A stretch of DNA of 38,191 nt from Bacteroidota bacterium (lineage in GTDB: Bacteria > Bacteroidota > Bacteroidia > Bacteroidales > JAUZOH01). This document shows, piece by piece, positions 15,318-29,408 of this stretch (its first letter is position 1; every line of letters begins with the position of its first letter). The position numbers were made by a program, and so were the translations under genes. The stretch covers positions 1-38,191 of the forward strand of contig JAUZOH010000002.1 in assembly GCA_030706565.1 (NCBI GenBank), in the 5' to 3' direction. The notes beneath the pieces were generated by a model. It did not search any database and was not told the DNA's origin. It was given only the letters and a program-made list of their open reading frames with translations.

Positions 15318-17060
15318 TTAGCTGATTTTTAAATCTGCAATAATATTTTTGATTCTTTCAGCGAGCAGGTCATCAACTTTTTGAAAATCATCTTTGTTGG
15401 CCAGCTTTTCTTTTACACTGAAATAAAATTTGATTTTAGGCTCTGTTCCTGAAGGCCTGATGGAAATCTTTGAACCATCTTTCAGGAAAAATTGAAGCAC
15501 ATTGGAGACAGGTAATGTGATATCGTTGGGTGTGCTTAATTTCCCATAAGATAAGTGTTTCAGGTAATCATTGATCAGCATTACTTCAGAATTATTGATG
15601 AAAGAAGGAGGATTATTCCTGAACCTTTCCATCATCTTTTGGATTTCTTCCGCTCCGCTTTTACCCTGGCGCACAATAGAAATAAGAGATTCTTTGTAAA
15701 ATCCATATTCCACATAAATATCAACCAAAACATCCCAGAGTGTTTTCCCATTTTCTCTGGCCCAGGCAGCTGTTTCAGCAACCAAGGCACAGGTCATTAC
15801 GGCATCTTTATCCCTGACAAAATCGGCTGCCAAAAATCCATAACTTTCTTCTCCTCCGCCAATAAAATCTTTGTTCTCTTTTTCGTTTTGCTGGATGGTA
15901 TCTGCGATATATTTGAAACCTGTCAATACGTCAAAATATTCGACCTTGTATTTTTTTGCAATATCCGCTATAAGGTCTGTAGTGACAATGGTTTTGACAA
16001 TATATTGATTGCCATTGAGAATCTTTTTGGAAGCCCTGCAGGAAATAAGGTAATTGATCAACAAGGTAGCTGTCTGGTTGCCATTCAGCAGGACAAATTG
16101 TCCGTCTTTATTTTTCACTGCCACTCCAACCCGGTCAGCATCGGGATCGCTGGCTAAAACCAGATCCGCATCCGTTTCTTTTGCTTTTTCCAAAGCCAAG
16201 TCTAATGCTGCATGTTCTTCGGGATTAGGAGATTTAACCGTGGGGAAGTTCCCGTCGGTAACATCCTGTTGAGGAACATGGATTACATTTCTGAACCCAA
16301 ACTTTTCTAAAATCTTAGGAATAAGCTTGACCCCACTGCCATGTAAAGGAGTATAAACGATTTTCAGGTCGTTGTTTTTCTTTATCAGTTCTGGAGAAAT
16401 TGACAAAGTTTTAATTTTATCTGTATAGATTTCATCAATTTCTTCACCAATAATTTCAATTTTATCTTTATTCCCATCTAACCTGACCTGATCGATATTT
16501 TTGATCTTCTTAACCTCTTCAATGATGTTCTTGTCATGAGGGGCAATAATTTGTCCCCCATCATCCCAATATACTTTATATCCGTTGTATTCCTTGGGGT
16601 TATGGGAAGCCGTAATTACAATCCCACTTTGACATTTAAGGTATCTGACCGTAAAAGAAAGTTCAGGAGTCGGACGAAGCGAATCGAACAGAAACACCTT
16701 TATACCATTGGCCGATAATATTTTTGCAGCTGTTTCGGCAAACAACTTGCTGTTATTCCGGCTATCATGGGCAATTGCAACTTTTATTTCCGGAAGTTTT
16801 GAAAACTGCTGTTTTAAATAATTGCATAATCCCTGAGTGGCCATTCCTACCGTATAAATATTCATGCGGTTTGTACCAACCCCCATGATACCGCGTAATC
16901 CACCAGTACCGAATTCCAAATCGCGATAAAACGATTCGTTTAACTCCGCGGGATTTTTTAATAGCTTTCTAACTTCCTCTTTAGTTTTTTCGTCAAAATT
17001 CCCTTCAAGCCACAGCTTTACTCTTTCATCTACTGAGCTGTTATTTTCTCCCTTTCCCAT
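15318..17060 (-). CDS. Phospho-sugar mutase (alpha-phosphoglucomutase / phosphomannomutase family, PgcA-like)
   Basis: 580 aa. Active-site loop TASHNPKEYNGYK, metal loop ASDPDADR, sugar loop GGEESYG. Confidence 0.9.
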   Translation of the reverse strand: MGKGENNSSVDERVKLWLEGNFDEKTKEEVRKLLKNPAELNESFYRDLEFGTGGLRGIMGVGTNRMNIYTVGMATQGLCNYLKQQFSKLPEIKVAIAHDSRNNSKLFAETAAKILSANGIKVFLFDSLRPTPELSFTVRYLKCQSGIVITASHNPKEYNGYKVYWDDGGQIIAPHDKNIIEEVKKIKNIDQVRLDGNKDKIEIIGEEIDEIYTDKIKTLSISPELIKKNNDLKIVYTPLHGSGVKLIPKILEKFGFRNVIHVPQQDVTDGNFPTVKSPNPEEHAALDLALEKAKETDADLVLASDPDADRVGVAVKNKDGQFVLLNGNQTATLLINYLISCRASKKILNGNQYIVKTIVTTDLIADIAKKYKVEYFDVLTGFKYIADTIQQNEKENKDFIGGGEESYGFLAADFVRDKDAVMTCALVAETAAWARENGKTLWDVLVDIYVEYGFYKESLISIVRQGKSGAEEIQKMMERFRNNPPSFINNSEVMLINDYLKHLSYGKLSTPNDITLPVSNVLQFFLKDGSKISIRPSGTEPKIKFYFSVKEKLANKDDFQKVDDLLAERIKNIIADLKIS

Positions 17061-17066
17061 AATATC

Positions 17067-17945
17067 TTATTTCGTTTCGTAACCTAAGCGTTTCATGCAA
17101 TCTTTTAAACTGTCTTTCCAATATGGAATGCCAAATCCAAAGGTGGATTTTATTTTATTTTTATTCAGTACACTGAAGGAGGGCCTTTTGACCGGTGTGG
17201 GGAAATCTTTGGTTTCTATTGGATTCACTTTGCAGCGAAGCGAAGACATTTTCATAATTTCCCATGCAAAATCATACCAACTACAAACTCCTTCATTTGA
17301 AAAATGAAAAACCCCTGGAACAAAATTACTATTTTTTTCCTCAAATGAATCAATAATTTTAAGTATTACATTAGCCAAATCGTGTGCGTATGTCGGCGTA
17401 CCTACCTGGTCAAAGACCACATTGATTTCTTTCCGTTCATGTCCCAATTTCAACATGGTTTTAACGAAGTTATTTCCATAGGGGGAATATAGCCATGAAG
17501 TACGAAGGATGAGTCCTGTCCCTGATTTTAGAACTTCCTTATCGCCATTTAATTTGGTTTGCCCGTACACAGAAGATGGATTGGTGGGATGGTCTTCACT
17601 ATAAGGAGTGCAGGATTCTCCACTGTAAACGTAGTCGGATGAAATGTGGATCAACCGGATATTTTTCTTTTTAGAAAGTTCGGCCAGATATTTTACTGCT
17701 GTATAATTGAGCAGATTAGCCATGTGTTTCTCGCTTTCTGCCTTATCTACTGCTGTAAATGCCGCACAATTAACGATATACTGTACGGGATGCCCATCCA
17801 CGAATCTTTCTAATTCTTTTGAATTTGTAATATCCAGGGTATCAACATCCGTATATATAAAATCGAATTGAGGGTAATAGGTTGATAATTCATGTATTTC
17901 GGTTCCTAATTGTCCGTTTGAACCTGTAACCAATATTTTAATCAT
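17067..17945 (-). CDS. rfbD: dTDP-4-dehydrorhamnose reductase
   Basis: 292 aa, N-terminal Rossmann ILVTGSNGQLG, YGQTK catalytic motif. ATGA overlap with rfbC. Confidence 0.9.
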   Translation of the reverse strand: MIKILVTGSNGQLGTEIHELSTYYPQFDFIYTDVDTLDITNSKELERFVDGHPVQYIVNCAAFTAVDKAESEKHMANLLNYTAVKYLAELSKKKNIRLIHISSDYVYSGESCTPYSEDHPTNPSSVYGQTKLNGDKEVLKSGTGLILRTSWLYSPYGNNFVKTMLKLGHERKEINVVFDQVGTPTYAHDLANVILKIIDSFEEKNSNFVPGVFHFSNEGVCSWYDFAWEIMKMSSLRCKVNPIETKDFPTPVKRPSFSVLNKNKIKSTFGFGIPYWKDSLKDCMKRLGYETK

Positions 17946-18505
17946 AATTGTCCATAAATAAAATTTATTTCTGCTTCATCAAAGGGAGGCAATACATTGT
18001 CTTTTGCAGCAACCAGGGGTTTTATTCCTTCAAGCCCCCAGTCAATATTTAATTTTTTGTCGCTATATAATATTCCTCTTTCTGCTTTCGGGGTATAGAG
18101 GTTATCCACTTTGTAAAAGAATACTGCTGTTGGGCTGAGCACAGAAAATCCATGGGCAAAGCCTCTGGGAATAATTAATTGTCTTTTGTTCTCAGCAGAA
18201 AGTTCAACTTTTATCCATTTTCCAAAACTGGGGGATCCTTTCCGCAAATCGACGGCCACATCAAATACACGTCCTTCCAGTATTCTCACGAGCTTTGTCT
18301 GGGAATAGGGCGCCAATTGGTAATGTAGCCCTCTGAGTACTCCGTAGCTTGATTTGGATTGATTATCCTGTACAAACTTATAATTCAATCCTTCTTCTGC
18401 TAATGCTTTCTCATTGTAACTTTCATAGAAATAACCCCTTTCATCTTCAAAGACTTTAGGCTCAATAATCAGCACATCAGGTATTTCCGTTTTTATAATC
18501 TTCAT
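17942..18505 (-). CDS. rfbC: dTDP-4-dehydrorhamnose 3,5-epimerase
   Basis: 187-aa cupin. Motifs FEDERGYF, LRGLHYQ, IPRGFAHGF. Confidence 0.93.
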   Translation of the reverse strand: MKIIKTEIPDVLIIEPKVFEDERGYFYESYNEKALAEEGLNYKFVQDNQSKSSYGVLRGLHYQLAPYSQTKLVRILEGRVFDVAVDLRKGSPSFGKWIKVELSAENKRQLIIPRGFAHGFSVLSPTAVFFYKVDNLYTPKAERGILYSDKKLNIDWGLEGIKPLVAAKDNVLPPFDEAEINFIYGQL

Positions 18506-18519
18506 AAAAGAATAATATT

Positions 18520-19401
18520 TTAAAAAGTACGTATTTTTTCATTTGCTATCTGGATCAGATATTGTCCATATTCATTTTTTTTCAAAGATTCAGCCAGTTT
18601 TAGCAGTTGCTCCTTATTGATATAGCCGTTTCTGTAAGCAATTTCTTCCAGGCAGGCGACCATTAGCCCTTGTCTTTGCTGAAGGGTGGCAATGAAGTTT
18701 GAAGCTTGCAGCAGGCTGTCGTGGGTACCTGTATCCAACCAGGCAACTCCCCGGCCCAGCAAATGTACTTTGAGTCTGCCTTCATTCAGAAACAGACGGT
18801 TCAGGTCGGTTATTTCAAGTTCTCCCCTTGGTGAGGGTTTTAATGTCTTTGCTTTGGCCACTACATCATTGCTGTAATAATATAAGCCGGTAACCGCATA
18901 ATTGGAACGTGGATTTTGTGGTTTTTCCTCAAGGCTCAGGACATTCCCCGATTCATCAAACTCAACTACTCCATAGCGCTCAGGATCATTTACATAATAT
19001 CCGAAAACAACGGCACCATCCTGTAATTTGGCAGTATTTTTCAGTACACCTCCAAAACCATGGCCATAAAAGATATTATCCCCCAAAACCAGGCAAACAT
19101 TATCTTTACCTATAAAATCTTCGCCAATCAAAAAAGCCTGAGCTAAGCCATCGGGAGAGGGTTGTATGGCATAGGAGATTTTTAATCCAAGCTGGCTGCC
19201 ATCCAGAAGCAATTCTTCATACAAATGAATTTCTTTGGGCGTTGAAATGATCAATATCTCTTTTATCCCCGACAACATCAGGTTTGACAGGGGATAATAG
19301 ATCATGGGTTTATCATAAACCGGGATGATTTGTTTGGAGATGCTTTTGGTGATAGGGTATAGCCTGGTACCAGAACCTCCGGCTAAAATGATTCCTTTCA
19401 T
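18520..19401 (-). CDS. rfbA: Glucose-1-phosphate thymidylyltransferase
   Basis: [31 protein letters not shown]...SLEEKP. Confidence 0.95.
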
Positions 19402-19405
19402 GTTG

Positions 19406-20356
19406 TTAATTGGTTTTCTGTTCTAATTTACCTTTAAAGTAGGAGATGGTTTTGATTAATCCCTCTTCCAGAGGGATTTTAGGTTCCCAGTTGTTTAGCT
19501 TTTGTTTGGCCAGGGTGATATCTGGTTTACGTTTCAACGGATCATCGGAAGGTAAAGGTTCAAAAACAATTTTTGATTTTGAATGACACAATTCTATGAT
19601 CTTTTCGGCCAGTTCTATCATGGAGTATTCGCCGGGGTTTCCAATGTTTACGGGGCCTATAAAATCCTCCCCGGTATTCATCATACGGATCATGCCTTCA
19701 ACCAGGTCGTCCACATATTGAAAGCTGCGGGTCTGATGCCCGTCCCCGTATACCGTGATGTCCTTGTCCTGTAATGCCTGCATAATGAAATTGGAAACCA
19801 CCCGGCCATCGTTGGGATGCATTCTGGGGCCATAGGTGTTGAATATCCTGATGATTTTTATCCGGACATTATTCTGGTGATGATAATTCATGAAGAGGGA
19901 TTCGGCACAGCGCTTGCCTTCATCGTAACAGGAACGTACCCCGTTGGGATTGACATTGCCCCAGTAACTTTCAACCTGCGGATGTATGGCGGGATCTCCA
20001 TAAACTTCACTGGTGGATGCCTGTAATATTTTGGCCCTGGTACGTTTGGCCAGACCCAGCATATTGATGGCTCCCATCACCGAAGTCTTGATGGTTTTTA
20101 TCGGGTTGTACTGATAATGTATTGGCGATGCGGGACATGCCAGGTTGTAGATTTCGTCAACCTCTATATAAAAGGGCATAGTGACATCATGGCGAATCAA
20201 TTCAAAATAAGGATTTTTCAACAGAGGAATAACATTGTTTTTTGAACCGGTAAAGTAGTTGTCCAGACAAATTACCTCATTGCCTTCATCCAGTAATCTT
20301 TCACATAAATGTGAACCAATAAAACCGGCACCTCCGGTGACTAATATCTTTTTCAT
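19406..20356 (-). CDS. UDP-glucuronate decarboxylase (UDP-xylose synthase), extended SDR
   Basis: [39 protein letters not shown]. The pattern is typical of UXS rather than of dTDP-glucose 4,6-dehydratase. Confidence 0.85.
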
Positions 20357-20395
20357 TTGTTTTTAAACATTATATATATGTCCTGGAAATCTTGT

Positions 20396-21733
20396 TTAAT
20401 TTTTTGCCGTGAGCGAAGGCCTTCTTCCTATGCTGTAATAGGAAAACCCGCTTTCAAGCAATTCGGCTGAATCATAAATATTCCTTCCGTCAAAGATGAC
20501 TTTTGATTTTAACAGCCTTTCCATTACTTTCAGGTTGGGAACCCTGAATTCGGGCCATTCTGTGATCACAATAAGACCATCAGCATCGATCAATGCATCA
20601 TAAGGATCGATGGCATATTCGATTTTGCTGCCTATTCTTCGCTTGCACTCATCCATGGCTACCGGATCATAAGCTTTTACACTGGCTCCTGCCCTGGTTA
20701 ATTTATCAATGATTGACAATGATGGTGCTTCCCGCATATCATCTGTCTGCGGTTTAAATGATAATCCCCAAAGTGCAAATTTTTTCCCTGCCAAGTTTTT
20801 TCCGTAATGAGAAACTATCTTGTCGAAAATGATGACCTTTTGTTTTTCGTTTACATTTTCTACTGCCTGTAAGATATTCAGGGTGAAGTTATTCTTTTTT
20901 GCGGTATTGATTAAGGCCTTTACATCCTTTGGAAAACAGGAACCTCCATAGCCTGCGCCGGGATAGATGAATTTATTTCCTATGCGGGCATCACTGCCAA
21001 TACCCAGGCGGACCATGTTGACATCAGCTCCCAGCAATTCACATAGATTGGCTATTTCGTTCATGAAACTGATTTTGGTGGCCAGCATAGAATTGGCTGT
21101 ATATTTGGTCATTTCAGCCGAAGGAATATCCATAAACAACAAGGGATGTCCGTTGAGCAGGAATGGCTTGTACAACTTGCTTAAGGTTTTTTGGGCCGTA
21201 TCCGATTCCACCCCAATTACAATACGGTCGGGTTTGAGAAAGTCATCGATGGCATTGCCTTCCTTTAAAAATTCAGGATTGGAGGCCACATCAAAGGGGA
21301 CATTCATTTTTCTCTTAGTTAACTCTGCCTGGACGGCCGCTTTAACTTTTTGGGCCGTACCAATAGGTACTGTACTTTTGGTCACAACAACCAGGTAATG
21401 GTCAAGATTTTGCCCAATTTCCCTGGCTACTCCCAGGACATATTTCAAATCGGCACTGCCGTCTTCATCGGGCGGGGTTCCTACCGCAATAAAGACTGCT
21501 TCTGCTCCAACCAAACTTTCTCCCAGGTTGGTGGTAAACGACAATCTCCCTTTTTCGACATTCCTTTTTATCATTGTATCCAGGCCAGGCTCATAAATAG
21601 GAACAATCCCTTGATGCAACTTTTCTATTTTTCCCTTATCAATATCAACGCAAGTTACATCAATTCCCGTCTCGGCAAAGCAAGTCCCCGAAACCAAACC
21701 CACATAACCTGTTCCTACAATAGATATTTTCAT
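20396..21733 (-). CDS. ugd: UDP-glucose 6-dehydrogenase
   Basis: IVGTGYVGLVSG, catalytic GYGGSCFPKD, 445 aa. Confidence 0.93.
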   Translation of the reverse strand: MKISIVGTGYVGLVSGTCFAETGIDVTCVDIDKGKIEKLHQGIVPIYEPGLDTMIKRNVEKGRLSFTTNLGESLVGAEAVFIAVGTPPDEDGSADLKYVLGVAREIGQNLDHYLVVVTKSTVPIGTAQKVKAAVQAELTKRKMNVPFDVASNPEFLKEGNAIDDFLKPDRIVIGVESDTAQKTLSKLYKPFLLNGHPLLFMDIPSAEMTKYTANSMLATKISFMNEIANLCELLGADVNMVRLGIGSDARIGNKFIYPGAGYGGSCFPKDVKALINTAKKNNFTLNILQAVENVNEKQKVIIFDKIVSHYGKNLAGKKFALWGLSFKPQTDDMREAPSLSIIDKLTRAGASVKAYDPVAMDECKRRIGSKIEYAIDPYDALIDADGLIVITEWPEFRVPNLKVMERLLKSKVIFDGRNIYDSAELLESGFSYYSIGRRPSLTAKN

Positions 21734-21793
21734 GATTTATCTGGTTTTGCATTTTTTCATTTAACAATACGACAAGTTTTTTCAATTAAGTAG

Positions 21794-21801
21794 CAAAAAT
21801 A
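21794..21801 (-). promoter_or_regulatory. Candidate -7 box (TATTTTTG on minus strand) for the ugd operon
   Basis: Matches TAnnTTTG, about 60 nt upstream of the ugd ATG at 21733. Confidence 0.35.
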
Positions 21802-22044
21802 AATCTTATACTTTAAATATGCTTTAAAAAATGAAAGATTTTAAGAAAGTTGATTTTACAACAATTAAAATTAATACATTTAATTTAAAATCCTTATTTT
21901 ATTAAACAACAGTAAATAAAATAGTTGCGATTTTATGATTTATAACATTATTCAGAATTTGCCCGGAGAGGCTTTAACTTAAAAGAAATAAAACTATTAC
22001 ATGAATATTTTTCATAACTTTAATAGTTTAAATAAAAAATAATG

Positions 22045-22052
22045 TATTTTTG
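22045..22052 (+). promoter_or_regulatory. Candidate -7 box TATTTTTG for rpsA
   Basis: Matches TAnnTTTG, 54 nt upstream of the ATG at 22106. Confidence 0.4.
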
Positions 22053-22105
22053 CACCTTGAATTAAAAAAATAATGTCTAACTTATTAATTATTAATTTAT
22101 TTTAA

Positions 22106-24067
22106 ATGGTTGAACAAGAAAATAAACCTGAAGAAGTAGTTGATGGTGCGAATGTAGCGAAAGATGCTGCTAAAATCAACAATGAAGAAGTGAAAAATGT
22201 TTCTGAGTCTGAAGAAGAAGGGGCTGAAGAAGAGCTTAATCTGGTTAAAAAACCGGTTGAAGAGGAATTCGATTGGAGTCTTTTCACAGATAAAAAAGGA
22301 ACTTCCTATCCTGCTGATGAAAAGGCAAAATTTGAAGAAATGTACGCTCAGACTTTATCCACTATTGCTGAGAATGAAGTTATTGAAGGTGCTGTTATCT
22401 CTATGAATAAAAGAGAAGTGGTGATCAATATCGGCTATAAATCTGAAGGTGTTGTTAGTCTGAATGAATTTCGTTACAATCCCGACTTGAAAGTGGGTGA
22501 CAAAGTTGAAGTCTACGTTGAAAGTCAGGAAGATAAAAAAGGTCAGCTGATCCTTTCTCACAAGAAAGCCAGAGCAATGCGTTCATGGGACAGAGTGAAC
22601 GAAGCTCTCGAAAAAGACGAAATCATCAAAGGATATATCAAATGCCGTACTAAAGGCGGTATGATCGTTGATGTATTCGGTATTGAAGCTTTCCTCCCCG
22701 GTTCACAAATTGATGTGAAACCTATCCGTGATTACGACATGTATGTTGATAAAACCATGGAATTTAAAGTGGTTAAAATCAACCATGAATTTAAAAATGT
22801 TGTTGTATCTCATAAAGCGCTTATCGAAGCTGAGCTTGAACAACAGAAGAAAGAAATTATCTCTAAACTTGAAAAAGGACAGGTTCTTGAAGGAACTGTT
22901 AAAAATATCACCTCTTACGGAGTATTTATTGACCTGGGCGGCGTAGACGGTTTGATCCATATTACCGACCTTTCCTGGGGCAGGGTAAATCATCCTGAAG
23001 AAGTGGTTCATCTGGACCAAAAACTGAACGTTGTAATTCTTGATTTTGATGATCAGAAAAAACGTATCGCTCTTGGCTTGAAACAATTGACTCCTCATCC
23101 TTGGGATTCATTGGATCCGAATTTGAAGGTGGGTGATAAAATAAAAGGTAAAGTAGTTGTTCTGGCCGATTATGGTGCATTTGTTGAAATTGCTCCCGGT
23201 GTTGAAGGACTTATCCATGTTTCTGAAATGTCATGGTCACAGCACCTGAGAAGTGCCCAGGAATTCCTGAAAGTTGGGGATGTTGTGGAGGCTGTTATCC
23301 TTACCCTCGACCGCGAAGAAAGGAAGATGTCTCTTGGCATGAAACAACTCAAACCGGATCCATGGCAGAATATCGAAGAAAAATATGCAGTGGGCAGCAA
23401 ACATACCGCTAAGGTTCGCAACTTCACCAATTTTGGTGTTTTTGTTGAAATCGAAGAAGGTATTGACGGCCTGATCCATATTTCTGATTTGTCCTGGACA
23501 AGGAAGATCAAACATCCGGCTGAATTTACTTCCATAGGTGCCGATATTGATGTAGTGGTTCTGGAAATCGATAAGGATAACCGCAGATTAAGCCTGGGCC
23601 ATAAACAACTGGAAGAAAATCCCTGGGATGTCTTTGAAACAGTATTTACCATTGATTCTGTCCATGAAGGTACCATTATTGAATTGGTTGATAAAGGCGC
23701 TATTATTGCCCTGCCTTATGGAGTTGAAGGTTTTGCTACTACTAAACATCTGGTAAAAGAAGATGGAACAACGGCAAAAGTTGACGAAAAACTCCAATTC
23801 AAGGTAATTGAGTTCAACAAATCAGCTAAACGTATCATTCTTTCCCATACCAGAACTTTCGAAGACGCTAAAAAAGCTGAAGAGATTTCTGAAAGAAAAG
23901 AAAAGGAAGCTAATATTAAGAAAGTCACCAAGAAGATTAAAAATAATATAGAAAAGACTACTCTGGGTGATATTCCTGATTTGGCTGCCTTGAAGACAGA
24001 AATGGAAGAAAACGAAAAAAAAGCTGAAGCTGAAGCAGAAAAAGATAAAAAAGATCAGGAAAAATAG
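22106..24067 (+). CDS. rpsA: 30S ribosomal protein S1 with charged N- and C-terminal extensions
   Basis: Six S1/OB repeats (e.g. GAVISMNKREVVINIGYKSEGVV, GTVKNITSYGVFIDLGGVDGLIHITD). Acidic N-terminal extension of about 50 aa and a Lys/Glu-rich tail. Confidence 0.95.
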   Translation: MVEQENKPEEVVDGANVAKDAAKINNEEVKNVSESEEEGAEEELNLVKKPVEEEFDWSLFTDKKGTSYPADEKAKFEEMYAQTLSTIAENEVIEGAVISMNKREVVINIGYKSEGVVSLNEFRYNPDLKVGDKVEVYVESQEDKKGQLILSHKKARAMRSWDRVNEALEKDEIIKGYIKCRTKGGMIVDVFGIEAFLPGSQIDVKPIRDYDMYVDKTMEFKVVKINHEFKNVVVSHKALIEAELEQQKKEIISKLEKGQVLEGTVKNITSYGVFIDLGGVDGLIHITDLSWGRVNHPEEVVHLDQKLNVVILDFDDQKKRIALGLKQLTPHPWDSLDPNLKVGDKIKGKVVVLADYGAFVEIAPGVEGLIHVSEMSWSQHLRSAQEFLKVGDVVEAVILTLDREERKMSLGMKQLKPDPWQNIEEKYAVGSKHTAKVRNFTNFGVFVEIEEGIDGLIHISDLSWTRKIKHPAEFTSIGADIDVVVLEIDKDNRRLSLGHKQLEENPWDVFETVFTIDSVHEGTIIELVDKGAIIALPYGVEGFATTKHLVKEDGTTAKVDEKLQFKVIEFNKSAKRIILSHTRTFEDAKKAEEISERKEKEANIKKVTKKIKNNIEKTTLGDIPDLAALKTEMEENEKKAEAEAEKDKKDQEK

Positions 24068-24141
24068 TATCTTTACCAGTGAAGTTAAAAAAAGTTATTT
24101 CTCGTAAATAAATTTATAATTCAAGCTTAAATTTATTTTAT

Positions 24142-24489
24142 ATGGAATTCAATATAAAAAAACTGGAAAATTATACTTTAATTCAAGTATTGGAAGAGAA
24201 ACTGGATACTCATATTGCCCCGAACTTAAAATCTGAACTGATTCTGATTTCTGGCAATGGAGAGGAGAACATCATACTGGATTTAAGTAAATGTCGTTAT
24301 TGTGATTCCTCAGGTCTGAGCGCAATTTTAGTGGCCAACAGGCTCTGCAAAAATGCGAATGGAACTTTCGTGCTCACTGGTTTAAATGATGCCGTGGAAA
24401 GGCTTATTACAATTTCGCAACTGGATACTGTTTTGAGCATTACCAACACCGTGGAAGAAGCGGTAGATATAGTTACTAAAGCTCAATAA
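24142..24489 (+). CDS. STAS-domain protein (anti-sigma-factor antagonist, SpoIIAA-like)
   Basis: 115 aa with the conserved phosphorylatable-serine context YCDSSGLSAIL. Confidence 0.8.
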   Translation: MEFNIKKLENYTLIQVLEEKLDTHIAPNLKSELILISGNGEENIILDLSKCRYCDSSGLSAILVANRLCKNANGTFVLTGLNDAVERLITISQLDTVLSITNTVEEAVDIVTKAQ

Positions 24490-24506
24490 TTTAATAAGCT
24501 GAAAAA

Positions 24507-25442
24507 TTGTCTTTTTCTGTAACAATATTGGGAAGCAGTTCTGCATTGCCTACTTCCCGGAGATTTACAAGTGCTCACCTGCTGAATGCAGATGAGCACT
24601 TTTTTTTAATTGATTGCGGCGAGGGAACTCAAATGCAATTGCGCAGGTATAATGTCCCCTTTTTGAAAATCAACCATATCTTTATCAGCCATCTGCATGG
24701 CGATCACACCTTCGGTTTAATCGGGCTGCTCTCATCTTATATCCTTCTGGAAAGGAAAAACGATTTACACATTTATGCTTACAGTGAATTAAAAAAGCTG
24801 CTCAACCCATATATCCGTTTTTACCTGAATGATATCACCTTTAAAATTATTTTTCATGACCTGGATGTCAGGAAAAACAGCGTGATCTATGAGGATAAGA
24901 TCCTTACAGTAGAAACGATACCTTTAAAGCACCGGATAGAAACCTGTGGTTTTTTATTCAGGGAAAAACAAAAGGACCTTAACATCAGGAAAGAATATGT
25001 TCAGGAATATGGCTTATCCATAAAAGATATACAAAACATTAAAAAAGGTGGGGATTTTCAGTCTGACGGGGGAGAAGTTATCCCGAATAAGATACTTACC
25101 TTTCCGCCATTTCATCCGCGTAGTTACGCATATTGCTCGGATACCGTTTTTGATGAATCGGTCATCCCTTTGGTCAGTCAGGTCGACTTGCTTTATCATG
25201 AAGCTACCTATTGCAATAAAGATCTGGCAAGAGCCAGAAAAAATTATCATTCTACTTCCTCTCAGGCAGCTACCATTGCTTCTAAAGCAGGAGTAAAGAA
25301 ACTTATCTTAGGCCACTTCTCAGCACGGTATAAAGATATCCTCCCTTTGCTGAAAGAAGCACAGGCCATTTTTCCCAATACTTCGGTGGTAAATGATGGC
25401 GATTGCTTTGATGTACCCCTGGAACGTGAAATTATCGGATAA
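24507..25442 (+). CDS. rnz: Ribonuclease Z (tRNA 3' endonuclease), TTG start
   Basis: Metallo-beta-lactamase motif HLHGDH, N-terminal ILGSSSALPT, C-terminal GHFS. The first codon at 24507 is TTG. Confidence 0.9.
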   Translation: MSFSVTILGSSSALPTSRRFTSAHLLNADEHFFLIDCGEGTQMQLRRYNVPFLKINHIFISHLHGDHTFGLIGLLSSYILLERKNDLHIYAYSELKKLLNPYIRFYLNDITFKIIFHDLDVRKNSVIYEDKILTVETIPLKHRIETCGFLFREKQKDLNIRKEYVQEYGLSIKDIQNIKKGGDFQSDGGEVIPNKILTFPPFHPRSYAYCSDTVFDESVIPLVSQVDLLYHEATYCNKDLARARKNYHSTSSQAATIASKAGVKKLILGHFSARYKDILPLLKEAQAIFPNTSVVNDGDCFDVPLEREIIG

Positions 25443-25460
25443 TTTGCATACGTTAAAATA

Positions 25461-25497
25461 GAAAACCCGAAGAATGGAGATTGCCGGGTTTTCTTTA
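25461..25497. terminator. Bidirectional intrinsic terminator between rnz and rubredoxin
   Basis: gaaaacccg (25461-25469) pairs with cgggttttc (25485-25493). Confidence 0.7.
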
Positions 25498-25501
25498 CTT
25501 T

Positions 25502-25663
25502 CTAGTCGGTGACTTCAAAATCTGATTTCTCGACTCCGCATAAGGGGCAAACCCAATCATCGGGAAGATCTTCGAAGGCTGTGCCTGGCGCAATTCCATT
25601 ATCCGTATCCCCTTCTTTGGGGTCATAAATATACCCGCAAACTTTACATTTGTATTTTTTCAT
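25502..25663 (-). CDS. Rubredoxin (53 aa; below the length cut-off of the ORF track)
   Basis: Manual reverse translation gives [53 protein letters not shown]. It carries both CxxCG and CPxCG iron-binding knuckles and the DDW motif. Confidence 0.9.
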
Positions 25664-25805
25664 AGCTGAAAATTTTAGTAATCTTTGGGTAATAAAAATA
25701 AAGAAAAGATTTGAATGAATAGAGGGAAAATTGTTTTTTTACGTAATTTAACGTTATGAATGAATTTAGAACTATTGAATTGTTAAACGATTGATTATTA
25801 ATTGA

Positions 25806-26555
25806 TTGGATATGCCGGATCTGGAAAATTTACTTTCCCTTTTTATGCCAGTAAAACTGGAGGAGCTTAACAGTGAAGTTGAATTGATGAATAGGATAGA
25901 TATGAAGTTCCTTTTTCCTATTAGCAAACTCGCTGGTTTTTTAAAACAGGTACAGCCTTTATATTATTCTTTATTAATTGATAACAGGAGGATTTTTAAT
26001 TATCAATCGATCTATTACGATACAAGTGATTTGTTTATGTATCAATGCCATCAGAAGGGAATGCTTAACCGGTTTAAAATAAGGCGCCGTAAATACCTTG
26101 ATTCACAGATTGATTATCTGGAGATCAAATTAAAAAATGATGAGGGGCGTACCATAAAAAAGCGCATTCGTTATCCAGGCGATCAGCAGAATATAGATCT
26201 GTCGGCACACCATTTCATTGCTTCCAATTCTCCTTTTAAAGCTGATCAGTTAACCCCTACCTTAGAGGTGAATTTTAAAAGGATCACTCTGGTGCATAAA
26301 TCCGTTTCTGAAAGGGTTACCCTGGATTTCAACCTTTCTTTTAAAAATAAGGATGGTGAACTGGAGGTTCCAAATTTAGTGATCGCTGAAATTAAGCGTG
26401 GCACCTCTCCTGTAAATTCTGATTTTGCAGGCATATTACAAAAAAAACATATTAAATCCTCGGAAATGAGTAAATATGCCATGGGCATTGCTTTATTATC
26501 CGAGAAAAACTTTATTAAGGATAATCCCTTATTAAATCCGATTGATGATGATTAG
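25806..26555 (+). CDS. VTC-domain protein (CYTH-like triphosphate-tunnel, polyphosphate-polymerase-like); TTG at 25806 or ATG at 25812
   Basis: 249 aa, soluble. Charged beta-strand motifs RIDMKFLF, YYDT, RFKIRRRKY, YLEIKLKN, VIAEIKRG, as in bacterial VTC-domain proteins. Confidence 0.7.
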   Translation: MDMPDLENLLSLFMPVKLEELNSEVELMNRIDMKFLFPISKLAGFLKQVQPLYYSLLIDNRRIFNYQSIYYDTSDLFMYQCHQKGMLNRFKIRRRKYLDSQIDYLEIKLKNDEGRTIKKRIRYPGDQQNIDLSAHHFIASNSPFKADQLTPTLEVNFKRITLVHKSVSERVTLDFNLSFKNKDGELEVPNLVIAEIKRGTSPVNSDFAGILQKKHIKSSEMSKYAMGIALLSEKNFIKDNPLLNPIDDD

Positions 26556-27255
26556 CCCTTTTTGTTTAGCTGATATAGGAACCGCTACCGCTTTTGGCGT
26601 GAAAATAATTGATATTGATTCTTTCCTGCGGTTGTTGGTTCATTTTGCATTTAATTTTCTGGTAATACTGGTGCTGGCTAGGGTATTGTATTATCACAAT
26701 TCCAGAAGGAAAGACTACCTGTTTAGTTATTTACTGATTTCGACCATTATTTTTCTGCTTTGCTATTTGTTGTCAAATGTCAAGCTTCAGCTTGGGTTTG
26801 CATTAGGCTTGTTTGCTGTTTTCGGAATTTTGCGGTACCGTACAGATGCCATTCCCATCAAAGAGATGACCTATCTCTTTGTAATCATTGGAATTTCCGT
26901 TATTAATGCCTTGTCCAGTGTAGAGATCAGTTATGCCGAACTTTTGTTTACCAATATACTGATCATTGGGCTGGCATGGTCAATGGAAAGAATATGGCTG
27001 TCGCGCCATGTAACCCGGAAAGTTGTGGATTATGAAAAGATAGAATTAATTAAGCCTGAAAACCGTAAATTCCTGATCCAGGATCTGGAAGAGCGTACAG
27101 GACTTCATATCAATAGAATTGAAATAGGTAAAATCGATTTTCTTAAGGAAACTGTCAGGATTTTGGTTTATTATTATGATGATGAAAACCGGGAATTCTC
27201 CGGAGCCGATGATCCCTTCAACCATTCGGTCAATAATGACGATGACGATGATTAA
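26542..27255 (+). CDS. DUF4956-like polytopic membrane protein with a cytosolic C-terminal domain and a poly-Asp tail
   Basis: About five hydrophobic helices (e.g. LGFALGLFAVFGILRYRTDAIPIKEMTYLFVIIGISVINAL), then an acidic soluble tail of about 90 aa. Its start (TTG 26542, ATG 26545 or 26548) overlaps the stop of the VTC gene. Confidence 0.7.
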   Translation: MMMISPFCLADIGTATAFGVKIIDIDSFLRLLVHFAFNFLVILVLARVLYYHNSRRKDYLFSYLLISTIIFLLCYLLSNVKLQLGFALGLFAVFGILRYRTDAIPIKEMTYLFVIIGISVINALSSVEISYAELLFTNILIIGLAWSMERIWLSRHVTRKVVDYEKIELIKPENRKFLIQDLEERTGLHINRIEIGKIDFLKETVRILVYYYDDENREFSGADDPFNHSVNNDDDDD

Positions 27256-27424: not shown

Positions 27425-27432
27425 TATCTTTG
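27425..27432 (+). promoter_or_regulatory. Candidate -7 box TATCTTTG for the thrS-infC-rpmI-rplT operon
   Basis: Matches TAnnTTTG, 27 nt upstream of the thrS ATG. A TTTG at 27406-27409 could serve as a -33 element. Confidence 0.4.
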
Positions 27433-27458: not shown

Positions 27459-29408
27459 ATGATTAAGTTAACGTTTCCCGATAACTCTGTTAGAGAATAC
27501 AATGAAGGAGTTACGGGGATTGATATTGCCAAAAGTATCAGCAACAGTTTAGCCAAAGAAGTTTTGGCTGTATCCATAAATGGAGAAGTATGGGATGCCA
27601 TGAGGCCGATTAACACTGATGCTACGGTTAAATTATTCAAATGGGAAGATGACGAAGGCAAACATGCTTTCTGGCATACATCAGCTCATCTGATGGCCGA
27701 AGCTTTGGAAGCCCTTTATCCTGGTATCAAGTTCGGAATTGGACCTGCTATTGAAAACGGGTTTTATTATGATGTAGATCTGGGCGAAGGCAGAGTGATT
27801 ACAGATGCCGACCTGCCTAAGGTTGAAGAAAAGATGCGTGAGCTTGTCAAGCAGAATTGCGCACTTATCCGCAGAGATATCAGCAAAGAAGATGCATTGA
27901 AATATTTCACCAAAAAAGGTGATCCCTATAAGGTTGAACTTATCACCGACTTGCAGGATGGTACAATAACCCTATACGACCAGGGCAATTTTACAGATTT
28001 ATGCCGCGGGCCACATTTACCCTCCACCGGTGCGATTAAGGCCATCAAATTGCTGAGTATTGCCGGCGCTTATTGGAGAGGCGATGAAAAAAGAAAACAA
28101 CTTACCCGTATTTATGGCGTCACTTTCCCCAAGCAAAAGATGCTTGAAGATTACTTGAAATTGCTTGAGGAAGCAAAACTTCGCGATCACCGGAAATTGG
28201 GTAAAGAACTTGAATTATTTACTTTTTCCGAAAAAGTGGGTGCAGGTTTGCCTTTGTGGTTGCCTCGTGGAGCTAAAGTAAGGGAAATACTTGAAAACTT
28301 TTTAAGGAAGGTACAGGATCATTATGGTTACAAGCAGGTAATTACCCCACATATCGGACAGAAAGAATTGTATGTTACCTCTGGCCATTTTGCAAAATAT
28401 GGTGCAGATTCATTCCGGCCCATCACTACTCCGGTTGAAGGGGAAGTGTTTATGCTGAAACCCATGAATTGCCCCCACCATTGCGAAATTTATAAATGCA
28501 AACCCCGTTCGTACAGGGATTTGCCTGTACGTTTGGCTGAATTCGGAACGGTTTACCGTTACGAACAGAGCGGTGAGTTGCACGGATTGACCAGGGTAAG
28601 AGGCTTTACTCAGGATGATGCCCATCTTTTCTGCCGTCCTGACCAAATTAAAGAAGAAATTAATAATATCATTGATATTATTTTCCTTATTTTCAAGGCA
28701 TTGAAATTTAATGAATACATTGCTCAGATTTCGCTTCGCGATCCCAATGATAAAACTAAATATATTGGAAGTGACGAAAACTGGGAGAAAGCCGAACGGG
28801 CTATTATTGAAGCTTCTGAAGAAAAAGGATTGAAAACTACTGTGGAATTGGGTGAAGCGGCTTTTTACGGTCCTAAGCTCGACTTTATGGTGAAAGATGC
28901 AATTGGACGTAAATGGCAGTTGGGTACTATCCAGGTCGATTATAATTTGCCTGAACGTTTTGGCCTTGAATATATGGGCAATGACAACCAGAAACATCGC
29001 CCGATCATGATACACCGTGCACCATTTGGTTCGATGGAAAGGTTTATCGCTGTTTTGCTCGAGCATACCGCCGGGAAATTACCACTATGGCTGTCACCCG
29101 ATCAGGTGGTGATAATGCCTATCAGTGAAAAATTTAACGATTATGCCAAAAAAGTTTTATCTTTTCTAAAAAATTCCGATATTCGCACCTTCGTTGACGA
29201 TAGAAATGAAAAAATCGGCAAGAAGATTAGAGACAATGAATTGATGAAGATCCCTTATTTATTGGTTGTTGGAGAGAAGGAGGAAGTTTCCGGAACTGTT
29301 TCTGTGCGTAAACAGGGAGAAGGTGATCAGGGAAGCATGAAATTCGAGGATTTTGCAAACTTTATTCAATCAGAAGTAAAAAAACAATTAGAGATCATTA
29401 ATTACTAA
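27459..29408 (+). CDS. thrS: Threonine--tRNA ligase
   Basis: 649 aa. TGS domain at the N-terminus, editing-domain HTSAH, class II motifs ([35 protein letters not shown]), anticodon-binding C-terminus. Confidence 0.95.

Follow-up and report, generated by a model that had tools for sequence, protein, structure and literature searches.

In papers from 2025-26, PPK1/PPK2 are still given as the bacterial route to polyphosphate and VTC as a eukaryotic enzyme. Genes for a 'poly-phosphate polymerase' and for DUF4956, cotH and DUF4832 have been described as accessory to the Pel operons that they directly adjoin in streptococci, clostridia and bifidobacteria (Whitfield and colleagues, bioRxiv 10.1101/768473), and NELoc-2 of Clostridium perfringens carries two pairs of a VTC gene and a membrane-protein gene beside CotH (PMC2879425). 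In Streptococcus intermedius, deletion of the membrane protein or of CotH altered Pel levels and halved aggregation; deletion of the VTC gene had no aggregation or Pel phenotype, and the authors, by whom polyphosphate was not measured, only suggest a role in phosphate metabolism (PMC12345266). Here, a pair of this kind was analyzed in a Bacteroidota bacterium (contig JAUZOH010000002.1), within a window of 38,191 nucleotides, the whole stretch of DNA under study. Gene 1 encodes a soluble VTC-domain protein and gene 2 a DUF4956 inner-membrane protein. The pair certainly is a functional unit. We tentatively read it, at a little short of an even chance, as a bacterial counterpart, in split form, of the VTC polyphosphate polymerase complex of eukaryotes.

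Both open reading frames were found on the forward strand at the coordinates given in a preliminary description of the window, which was made from the sequence alone. Gene 1 (25812..26555) starts with ATG and encodes 247 amino acids, the same length as in the public gene call for an identical protein (P0001), which also runs from the ATG; an alternative TTG start lies at 25806. Gene 2 (26548..27255) encodes 235 amino acids, with alternative starts at 26542 (TTG) and 26545 (ATG). The overlap of 8-14 nucleotides reported for the two genes was correct, its range being set by the choice of the gene 2 start. A sister contig obtained in another sequencing run (L083:1-6882) corresponds to window positions 20396-27255, with about 97% nucleotide identity across the pair, and has the gene order of the window: ugd, rpsA, STAS, RNase Z-like, rubredoxin, VTC, DUF4956. 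Since L083 lacks the first of the two candidate ATGs and keeps only the one equivalent to 26548, the gene 2 start was fixed at 26548. The conserved overlap is 8 nucleotides (ATGATTAG; 26548..26555, forward strand), in which ATG starts gene 2 and TAG stops gene 1. Overlaps or gaps of a few nucleotides between the two genes are the rule in related loci. In comparison with L083, the VTC gene showed 24 nucleotide differences, with 21 codons changed only synonymously and 3 non-synonymously, and the DUF4956 gene showed 28 (20 synonymous-only and 7 non-synonymous codons). On account of this synonymous excess, both genes are real and under purifying selection.

The assignment of the gene 1 product to the VTC/triphosphate-tunnel proteins was borne out by a significant Pfam match and by Vtc4 as the best fold match. 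It matched Pfam VTC (PF09359) over profile positions 1-234 of 235 (E 2.1e-20; 73.7 bits, cut-off 23), which was its only match: an N-terminal SPX and a C-terminal DUF202 domain are not present, and neither NCBIfam nor CYTH (E up to 0.1) returned a match. The AlphaFold (AF2) model of the protein, with a predicted local distance difference test score (pLDDT) of 89 and a predicted TM-score (pTM) of 0.87, comprises nine strands. The best Foldseek matches of this model were Vtc4 (3g3r; E 1.4e-12, TMq 0.66), the VTC complexes 7ytj, 8i6v and 9umg, Vtc3 and Vtc2, followed by the weaker matches E. coli YgiF (5a60; 1e-9) and CYTH and other tunnel enzymes (1e-7 or weaker). Direct sequence searches of both proteins of the pair against PDB chains gave nothing at E up to 10. 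The profile of the full VTC alignment gave weak matches to Vtc2/Vtc4 only, over the N-terminal two thirds, a C-terminal-only profile (A3) gave no usable alignment to Vtc4, and a homology search seeded with a Vtc4 fragment yielded exon-sized fragments only. Neither protein matched the PADLOC models of anti-phage defence. The family found with a profile of the gene 1 protein comprises 8945 representatives at 50% identity; among the best 150 of these, all 239-329 amino acids long, no VTC-DUF4956 fusion protein was found.

Fifty aligned homologues of the gene 1 protein (36-43% identity) have 29 invariant columns, and the closest non-self relative shows 46% identity. The tunnel domain comprises residues 29-231 (25896..26504, forward strand). 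Invariant in the 50 homologues are R28, D30, K32, R87, K89, R91, R93, E104, K106, K116, R118, R157, R168, D172, E193, K195, S220 and K221. Many invariant residues recur with a period of two along strands (R28/D30/K32; R87/K89/R91/R93/Y95; E104/K106/K108; T114/K116/R118; R157/T159; R168/T170/D172; E193/K195), which is the pattern expected for residues that would line one face of a modelled barrel. The motifs RIDMKF, RFKIRRRKY, YLEIKLK and VIAEIK, listed earlier as signs of a tunnel fold, do lie on predicted beta-strands and hold residues invariant in the 50 homologues. The expected basic tunnel is likewise supported: as read from secondary structure and fold matching, the protein would form a beta-barrel like that of Vtc4, in which 13-14 invariant Lys/Arg occupy every other position along the strands.

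Triphosphate and Mn2+ are bound in Vtc4 by K200, R264, R266, K281, Y359, R361, E426, S457 and K458; K458 is the sole ligand that differs in the inactive paralogues, where Vtc2 has Ile and Vtc3 has Leu, and the exchange Y359F in Vtc4 lowers polyphosphate in yeast (bioRxiv 10.1101/2023.01.27.525886). As reference, a yeast-type tunnel sequence was rebuilt from a public Logan contig containing frameshifts and aligned to the family. Its N-terminal half was mapped by alignment with a hidden Markov model (HMM) and its C-terminal half by MAFFT --add only, the latter mapping being backed by motif identity (VLEVK/IAEIK and FSKFxxG/MSKYxxG). Eight of the nine ligands are kept in the window protein, and all eight are invariant in the 50 homologues. 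K200 corresponds to K32, R264/R266 to R91/R93 by the HMM (MAFFT shifts this pair to K89/R91), K281 to K106, R361 to R157, E426 to E193 and S457 to S220. K458 corresponds to K221 in an SKY motif that is invariant in 50/50. Since a member of the VTC family keeps the polymerase-specific lysine, polyphosphate synthesis is the most economical reading, and we infer polymerase activity for the gene 1 product.

The ninth ligand, Y359, is represented by F155, in a column with F in 32/50 and Y in 18/50 homologues, so that this ligand is not kept. In addition, strand 1 reads RxDxK (R28-I-D30-M-K32), with the invariant Asp D30 where Vtc4 has Thr (T198). These two positions bear on a different triphosphate chemistry: the VTC-like protein might be a tunnel-fold hydrolase or transferase acting on tripolyphosphate, long-chain polyphosphate, nucleoside triphosphates or a triphosphorylated lipid or sugar, and might, together with DUF4956, serve the homeostasis of phosphate or cations or the modification of the envelope. 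Characterized bacterial tunnel enzymes are mostly hydrolases, and such enzymes also occur among the fold matches (YgiF 5a60, CYTH proteins). Asp30 partially restores the acidic ExExK motif of the hydrolases, while F155 replaces a Tyr required for full Vtc4 activity, and loss of the VTC gene was without phenotype in the streptococcus. Because of this Phe, the strand-1 Asp and the silent deletion, a role in hydrolysis or regulation was kept under consideration. The eight-stranded basic beta-barrel tunnel is shared with the CYTH/triphosphate tunnel metalloenzymes (YgiF and the archaeal and plant enzymes). However, these are the weaker fold matches; in E-value, Vtc4/3/2 lie closer than any other structure by three to five orders of magnitude, Pfam places the protein in VTC instead of CYTH, and the window protein, with RxDxK instead of ExExK, is closer to Vtc4 in sequence as well as in structure. 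Moreover, the protein retains every basic ligand, among them the polymerase-specific K458. Chemistry other than polyphosphate synthesis is considered rather unlikely.

For gene 2, a full-profile match to Pfam DUF4956 (PF16316; E 3e-53, 180.5 bits, cut-off 30.6) confirmed the family named in the preliminary description, and all 35 homologues in alignment A2 match the same family. The 33 more remote Bacteroidota homologues of A2 are 54-62% identical to the gene 2 protein, and mean column identity is 71% for DUF4956 compared with 43% for VTC. In the AF2 model (pLDDT 70), five helices are followed by a beta-alpha-beta-beta domain and then by a disordered tail. The five transmembrane helices (26614..27000, forward strand) comprise residues 24-53, 57-76, 79-100, 105-126 and 130-152 in the 236-residue numbering. 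The near-invariant membrane block in A2 reads GFALGLFA.FGI.RYRT..IPIKEMTYLF, and the invariant polar or charged residues N37, K80, E107, N121, E132, N137 and E148 lie inside the helices or at their ends, where they adjoin a glycine-rich helix and the RYRT..IPIKEMTYLF block at the cytoplasmic face. Mean Lys+Arg counts were 3.2 for loop 1 and 3.1 for loop 3, as compared with about 1 for the N-terminus and for loops 2 and 4. Based on the positive-inside rule, the protein was assigned an N-out, C-in topology, which places the alpha/beta domain and the acidic tail in the cytoplasm, the same compartment as the enzyme. The alpha/beta domain (residues 156-211; 27010..27177, forward strand) is ACT- or ferredoxin-like in outline only in the AF2 model. 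It is followed by a disordered acidic tail ending in NNDDDDD (27181..27252, forward strand; pLDDT <50), which is acidic in 35/35 homologues. Of the architecture proposed earlier, the five transmembrane helices stood; the uniformly acidic cytosolic domain of about 90 residues did not. It resolved into a mixed-charge alpha/beta domain of about 60 residues (mean K+R 12.5, D+E 10.9) and an acidic tail of about 24 residues (mean 8.1 D/E vs 0.7 K/R).

A search of the DUF4956 model against the PDB gave no significant fold neighbour, the matches to ACT, NikR and KH being non-significant, and no DUF202 match was obtained for the membrane partner, even at E up to 10. The streptococcal membrane partner was described as an MgtC-like transmembrane part plus ACT (PMC12345266), and the outline proposed for it, in which membrane helices precede a small alpha/beta domain in the cytoplasm, is common to MgtC/YhiD and DUF4956. 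However, similarity between the two was not detectable. No A2 member matched Pfam MgtC (PF02308) at E up to 10, to which E. coli YhiD itself matches at 5e-39, and hhalign of DUF4956 against YhiD gave a probability of 0.1%, a weak test with a shallow profile (effective number of sequences, Neff, 1.96) and a single MgtC sequence.

Related loci were collected by a scan with the DUF4956 alignment, taking one genome per species, which yielded 80 loci. The VTC alignment has no stretch conserved enough for such a scan; the loci were ascertained through DUF4956 and have little bearing on VTC genes without DUF4956. The VTC gene lies directly upstream of DUF4956 on the same strand in 73/80 loci, so the co-conservation on which the preliminary description had hung its proposal was observed. 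Among the remaining seven, VTC is 1.6 kb upstream in one, two are truncated and four are truly without VTC. This conserved gene order speaks against an incidental adjacency, in which two unrelated or decaying genes would overlap by chance. The window copy is indeed divergent, as its best non-self VTC relative shows only the 46% identity mentioned above, and its C-terminus is atypical. Nevertheless, all invariant residues are intact and synonymous changes far outnumber non-synonymous changes in comparison with L083, by which an adjacency of this kind is effectively refuted.

Four loci (L008, L024, L054 and L058) have DUF4956 without a nearby VTC gene, which shows that DUF4956 can occur alone or as a paralogue; two of the four adjoin a LytTR response regulator. 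In two loci from contigs of metagenome-assembled genomes (L018:2556-3316 and L030:7160-7887), the VTC gene is present as two overlapping open reading frames, either a frameshift pseudogene or an assembly error. All 80 loci are from Bacteroidota except L055 (PBNL01000005.1), which is labelled 'Methanobacteriota archaeon'. Its VTC-DUF4956 pair shows 61% identity to Bacteroidota proteins, and L055 probably represents a bacterial contig binned wrongly, not an archaeal case of the pair.

Beyond the pair itself, the loci share genes for exported and outer-membrane proteins. A DUF2490 outer-membrane barrel (Pfam E 1e-15), a family listed in the literature as a putative porin of unknown function, is encoded in 47/80 loci, in 43 of them directly downstream. 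A small exported protein is encoded in 45/80; the small lipoprotein c3 is found directly upstream in 32/80 loci and the 137-residue secreted protein c4 directly upstream in 29/80. Tightly packed operons of the order c3-c4-VTC-DUF4956-DUF2490 occur in L001 (5726-9400), L002, L007, L025, L026, L041, L045 and others, and no description of this operon was found in the searched literature. In Bacteroides thetaiotaomicron, DUF4956 and DUF2490 are adjacent (BT3498-3499) and were reported as one expression unit. In 24/80 loci the pair stands alone, as it does in the window.

A Pfam census of the 134 immediate outer neighbours was headed by the CotH kinase, the Lamin-tail domain and the type IX secretion sorting domain. 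With an HMM built from individually confirmed proteins, CotH-like open reading frames were found in 13/80 loci, at 0.7-1.3 kb from DUF4956, which answers in the affirmative the earlier question of CotH-like neighbours across Bacteroidota. Five CotH proteins that were checked (L029:4586-6805, L052:4482-6722, L013:248-3688, L027:3654-7607 and L045:9388-13509) are large, carry Lamin-tail domains and a C-terminal type IX secretion sorting domain, and flank the operon. The Gram-positive Pel and NELoc-2 loci share with the Bacteroidota loci the pair of VTC and a DUF4956-type protein in the same order, as well as the link to CotH, which stands independently on record for Firmicutes and Bifidobacteria. 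In contrast, the Bacteroidota loci add the DUF2490 barrel and the small exported proteins, and their checked CotH proteins carry type IX signals. The window differs further from the Gram-positive loci, as the pair has no CotH, Pel or glycosyltransferase neighbour within the 38 kb. As far as gene context in the family can tell, the links to exported proteins, DUF2490 and CotH suggest that the product serves the envelope or the cell surface. Coupling to the envelope was favoured because the membrane protein is very strongly conserved, its conserved face is cytoplasmic, and the link to exported proteins, an outer-membrane barrel and secreted kinases recurs in two distant phyla.

Taken together with the tunnel residues, these features are consistent with the following mechanism. 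Gene 1 would encode a cytoplasmic Vtc4-type tunnel enzyme that binds ATP, or another nucleoside triphosphate, with Mn2+/Mg2+ and transfers the gamma-phosphate to a growing polyphosphate chain threaded through the basic beta-barrel. Gene 2 would be made in step with gene 1 via the 8-nucleotide overlap, and the DUF4956 protein would serve as membrane anchor and regulator of the enzyme and, most likely, as the passage by which the product crosses the inner membrane. From topology and linkage we infer that the two proteins are in contact and that translocation takes place, export being the less certain and synthesis the more certain part. The path would be longer in many relatives, continuing via the small exported proteins and the DUF2490 barrel, with a CotH kinase added in some loci. 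Polyphosphate would be made at the inner membrane, probably for the envelope. By mimicking polyphosphate, the poly-Asp tail of DUF4956 might plug the basic tunnel or dock into it. A fuller version would be a second bacterial polyphosphate route, in which a VTC-type polymerase sits on a DUF4956 conduit that extrudes the chain during synthesis, DUF2490 extends the path to the periplasm or surface, and polyphosphate serves secreted CotH kinases as phosphoryl donor or scaffold; this we regard as doubtful.

A number of observations weigh against the pair as a split VTC polymerase with export. The Phe at the Y359 position and the Asp on strand 1, a partial acidic motif of the hydrolase type, concern catalysis, as does the silent VTC deletion in S. 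intermedius. The basic C-terminal helix of the homologues (K.N.FK.KLL.L.KI) is missing in the window protein, which ends in NPIDDD. A pore through DUF4956 is conjecture, given the lack of a DUF202 relation and of a significant fold match, and neither DUF2490 nor the c3/c4 proteins nor CotH occur in the window. Finally, no polyphosphate assay, enzymatic or genetic evidence, or characterization of a bacterial VTC-domain protein was found in the literature searched, where absence is not proof as most subscription journals were outside the search.

The points concerning the membrane protein bear on a further explanation, namely that polyphosphate is made but kept in the cytoplasm, DUF4956 being only an anchor or regulator that senses a ligand or cation via its ACT-like domain and acidic tail, with no translocation. 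The cytoplasmic location of the alpha/beta domain and tail would fit this, as would the regulatory architecture described for the streptococcal partner (PMC12345266), the lack of a pore-like fold match and the 24/80 loci which, like the window, have no outer-membrane or exported partner. However, the membrane part is the best conserved, and its invariant polar and charged helix residues are more than an anchor needs. Furthermore, the recurring exported proteins, outer-membrane barrel and secreted CotH kinases point outside the cytoplasm, and a relation to MgtC was not detectable. A cytoplasmic product with a purely anchoring or sensing partner is therefore thought unlikely.

Read as a split VTC complex, the pair shares with the yeast complex (Vtc4/Vtc3 or Vtc2/Vtc1) the Pfam VTC catalytic domain, the tunnel fold and 8/9 ligands including K458, and also the general plan of a soluble tunnel enzyme genetically tied to a membrane protein with conserved basic loops on the cytoplasmic side. 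It differs in lacking the SPX sensor, the fused DUF202 three-helix domain and a Vtc1-type partner; its membrane partner belongs to an unrelated family with five helices, an alpha/beta domain and an acidic tail. In addition, Phe and Asp stand in for Y359 and T198, and the activity of the window enzyme is predicted rather than observed. PPK1/PPK2 would share their product with the pair, should the hypothesis hold, but have unrelated folds, belong to unrelated families and are not membrane-coupled.

The finding is real and correctly identified, the interpretation first given for it is reasonable and in part supported, and the pairing itself is already in the literature. The novelty claimed for it held in part: no characterization of a bacterial pair was found, whereas the pair had already been described in Pel loci and NELoc-2 and deleted in S. 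intermedius. New are a case for catalytic competence made residue by residue, an envelope operon of Bacteroidota that includes DUF2490, and the link to CotH in Bacteroidota, with a type IX signal on the checked proteins. The window holds the minimal two-gene form of a widespread variant of the VTC system, and hence the simplest version to express and assay. If active, it would represent a third bacterial polyphosphate-synthesizing system, tied to the membrane, and direct tests would open up for polyphosphate in ppk-less bacteria and for polyphosphate outside the cell or in the envelope. A candidate source of phosphoryl groups would be at hand for the extracytoplasmic CotH kinases, and the membrane-coupled VTC design would be older than, or independent of, the eukaryotic complex. 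The family is relevant to gut and oral Bacteroidota, to Pel-biofilm streptococci and to the necrotic-enteritis loci of C. perfringens.

The flanks of the pair were as described before, with a divergent rubredoxin gene on one side and thrS on the other. The rubredoxin (53 amino acids; 25502-25663, reverse strand) was identified with E 9e-27. The divergent intergenic region of 148 nucleotides between it and gene 1 (25664..25811), which shows 9 differences from L083, is the presumed promoter region of the pair. No Bacteroidetes -7 motif (canonical TAnnTTTG) was found inside these 148 nucleotides 5' of gene 1, and a scan for sigma-70 promoters and terminators gave background level only. Downstream, thrS (27459-29408) heads thrS-infC-rplT and is preceded by a Bacteroidetes-type -7 motif, TATCTTTG, at 27425.

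HMM searches of the 38-kb window gave no match for DUF2490, c3 or c4 and, in any frame, no CotH-like open reading frame, and no PPK1/PPK2 was present among the open reading frames scanned. The C-terminal DDD of the VTC protein (26544-26552) is unusual for the family. The GC content is 36.8% for the pair and 39.2% for the window. On the reverse strand, 4 kb upstream of the pair (15318-21733), lies a sugar-nucleotide block of genes for phosphoglucomutase, rmlD, rmlC, rmlA, an rmlB-like dehydratase and UDP-glucose dehydrogenase; genes for glycosyltransferases or for export were not seen with it, whereas the Gram-positive pairs adjoin exopolysaccharide loci. Between 24142 and 25663, the rubredoxin gene on the opposite strand is accompanied by genes for a single-domain STAS protein of the anti-sigma-antagonist type and an RNase Z-like metallo-beta-lactamase with a TTG start, an arrangement also found in L083. 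The remaining genes of the window are housekeeping genes, namely those for a 2-oxoacid dehydrogenase complex, the dTDP-rhamnose and UDP-glucose dehydrogenase genes, rpsA, thrS and infC, together with open reading frames that, by size alone, resemble those of a respiratory chain.

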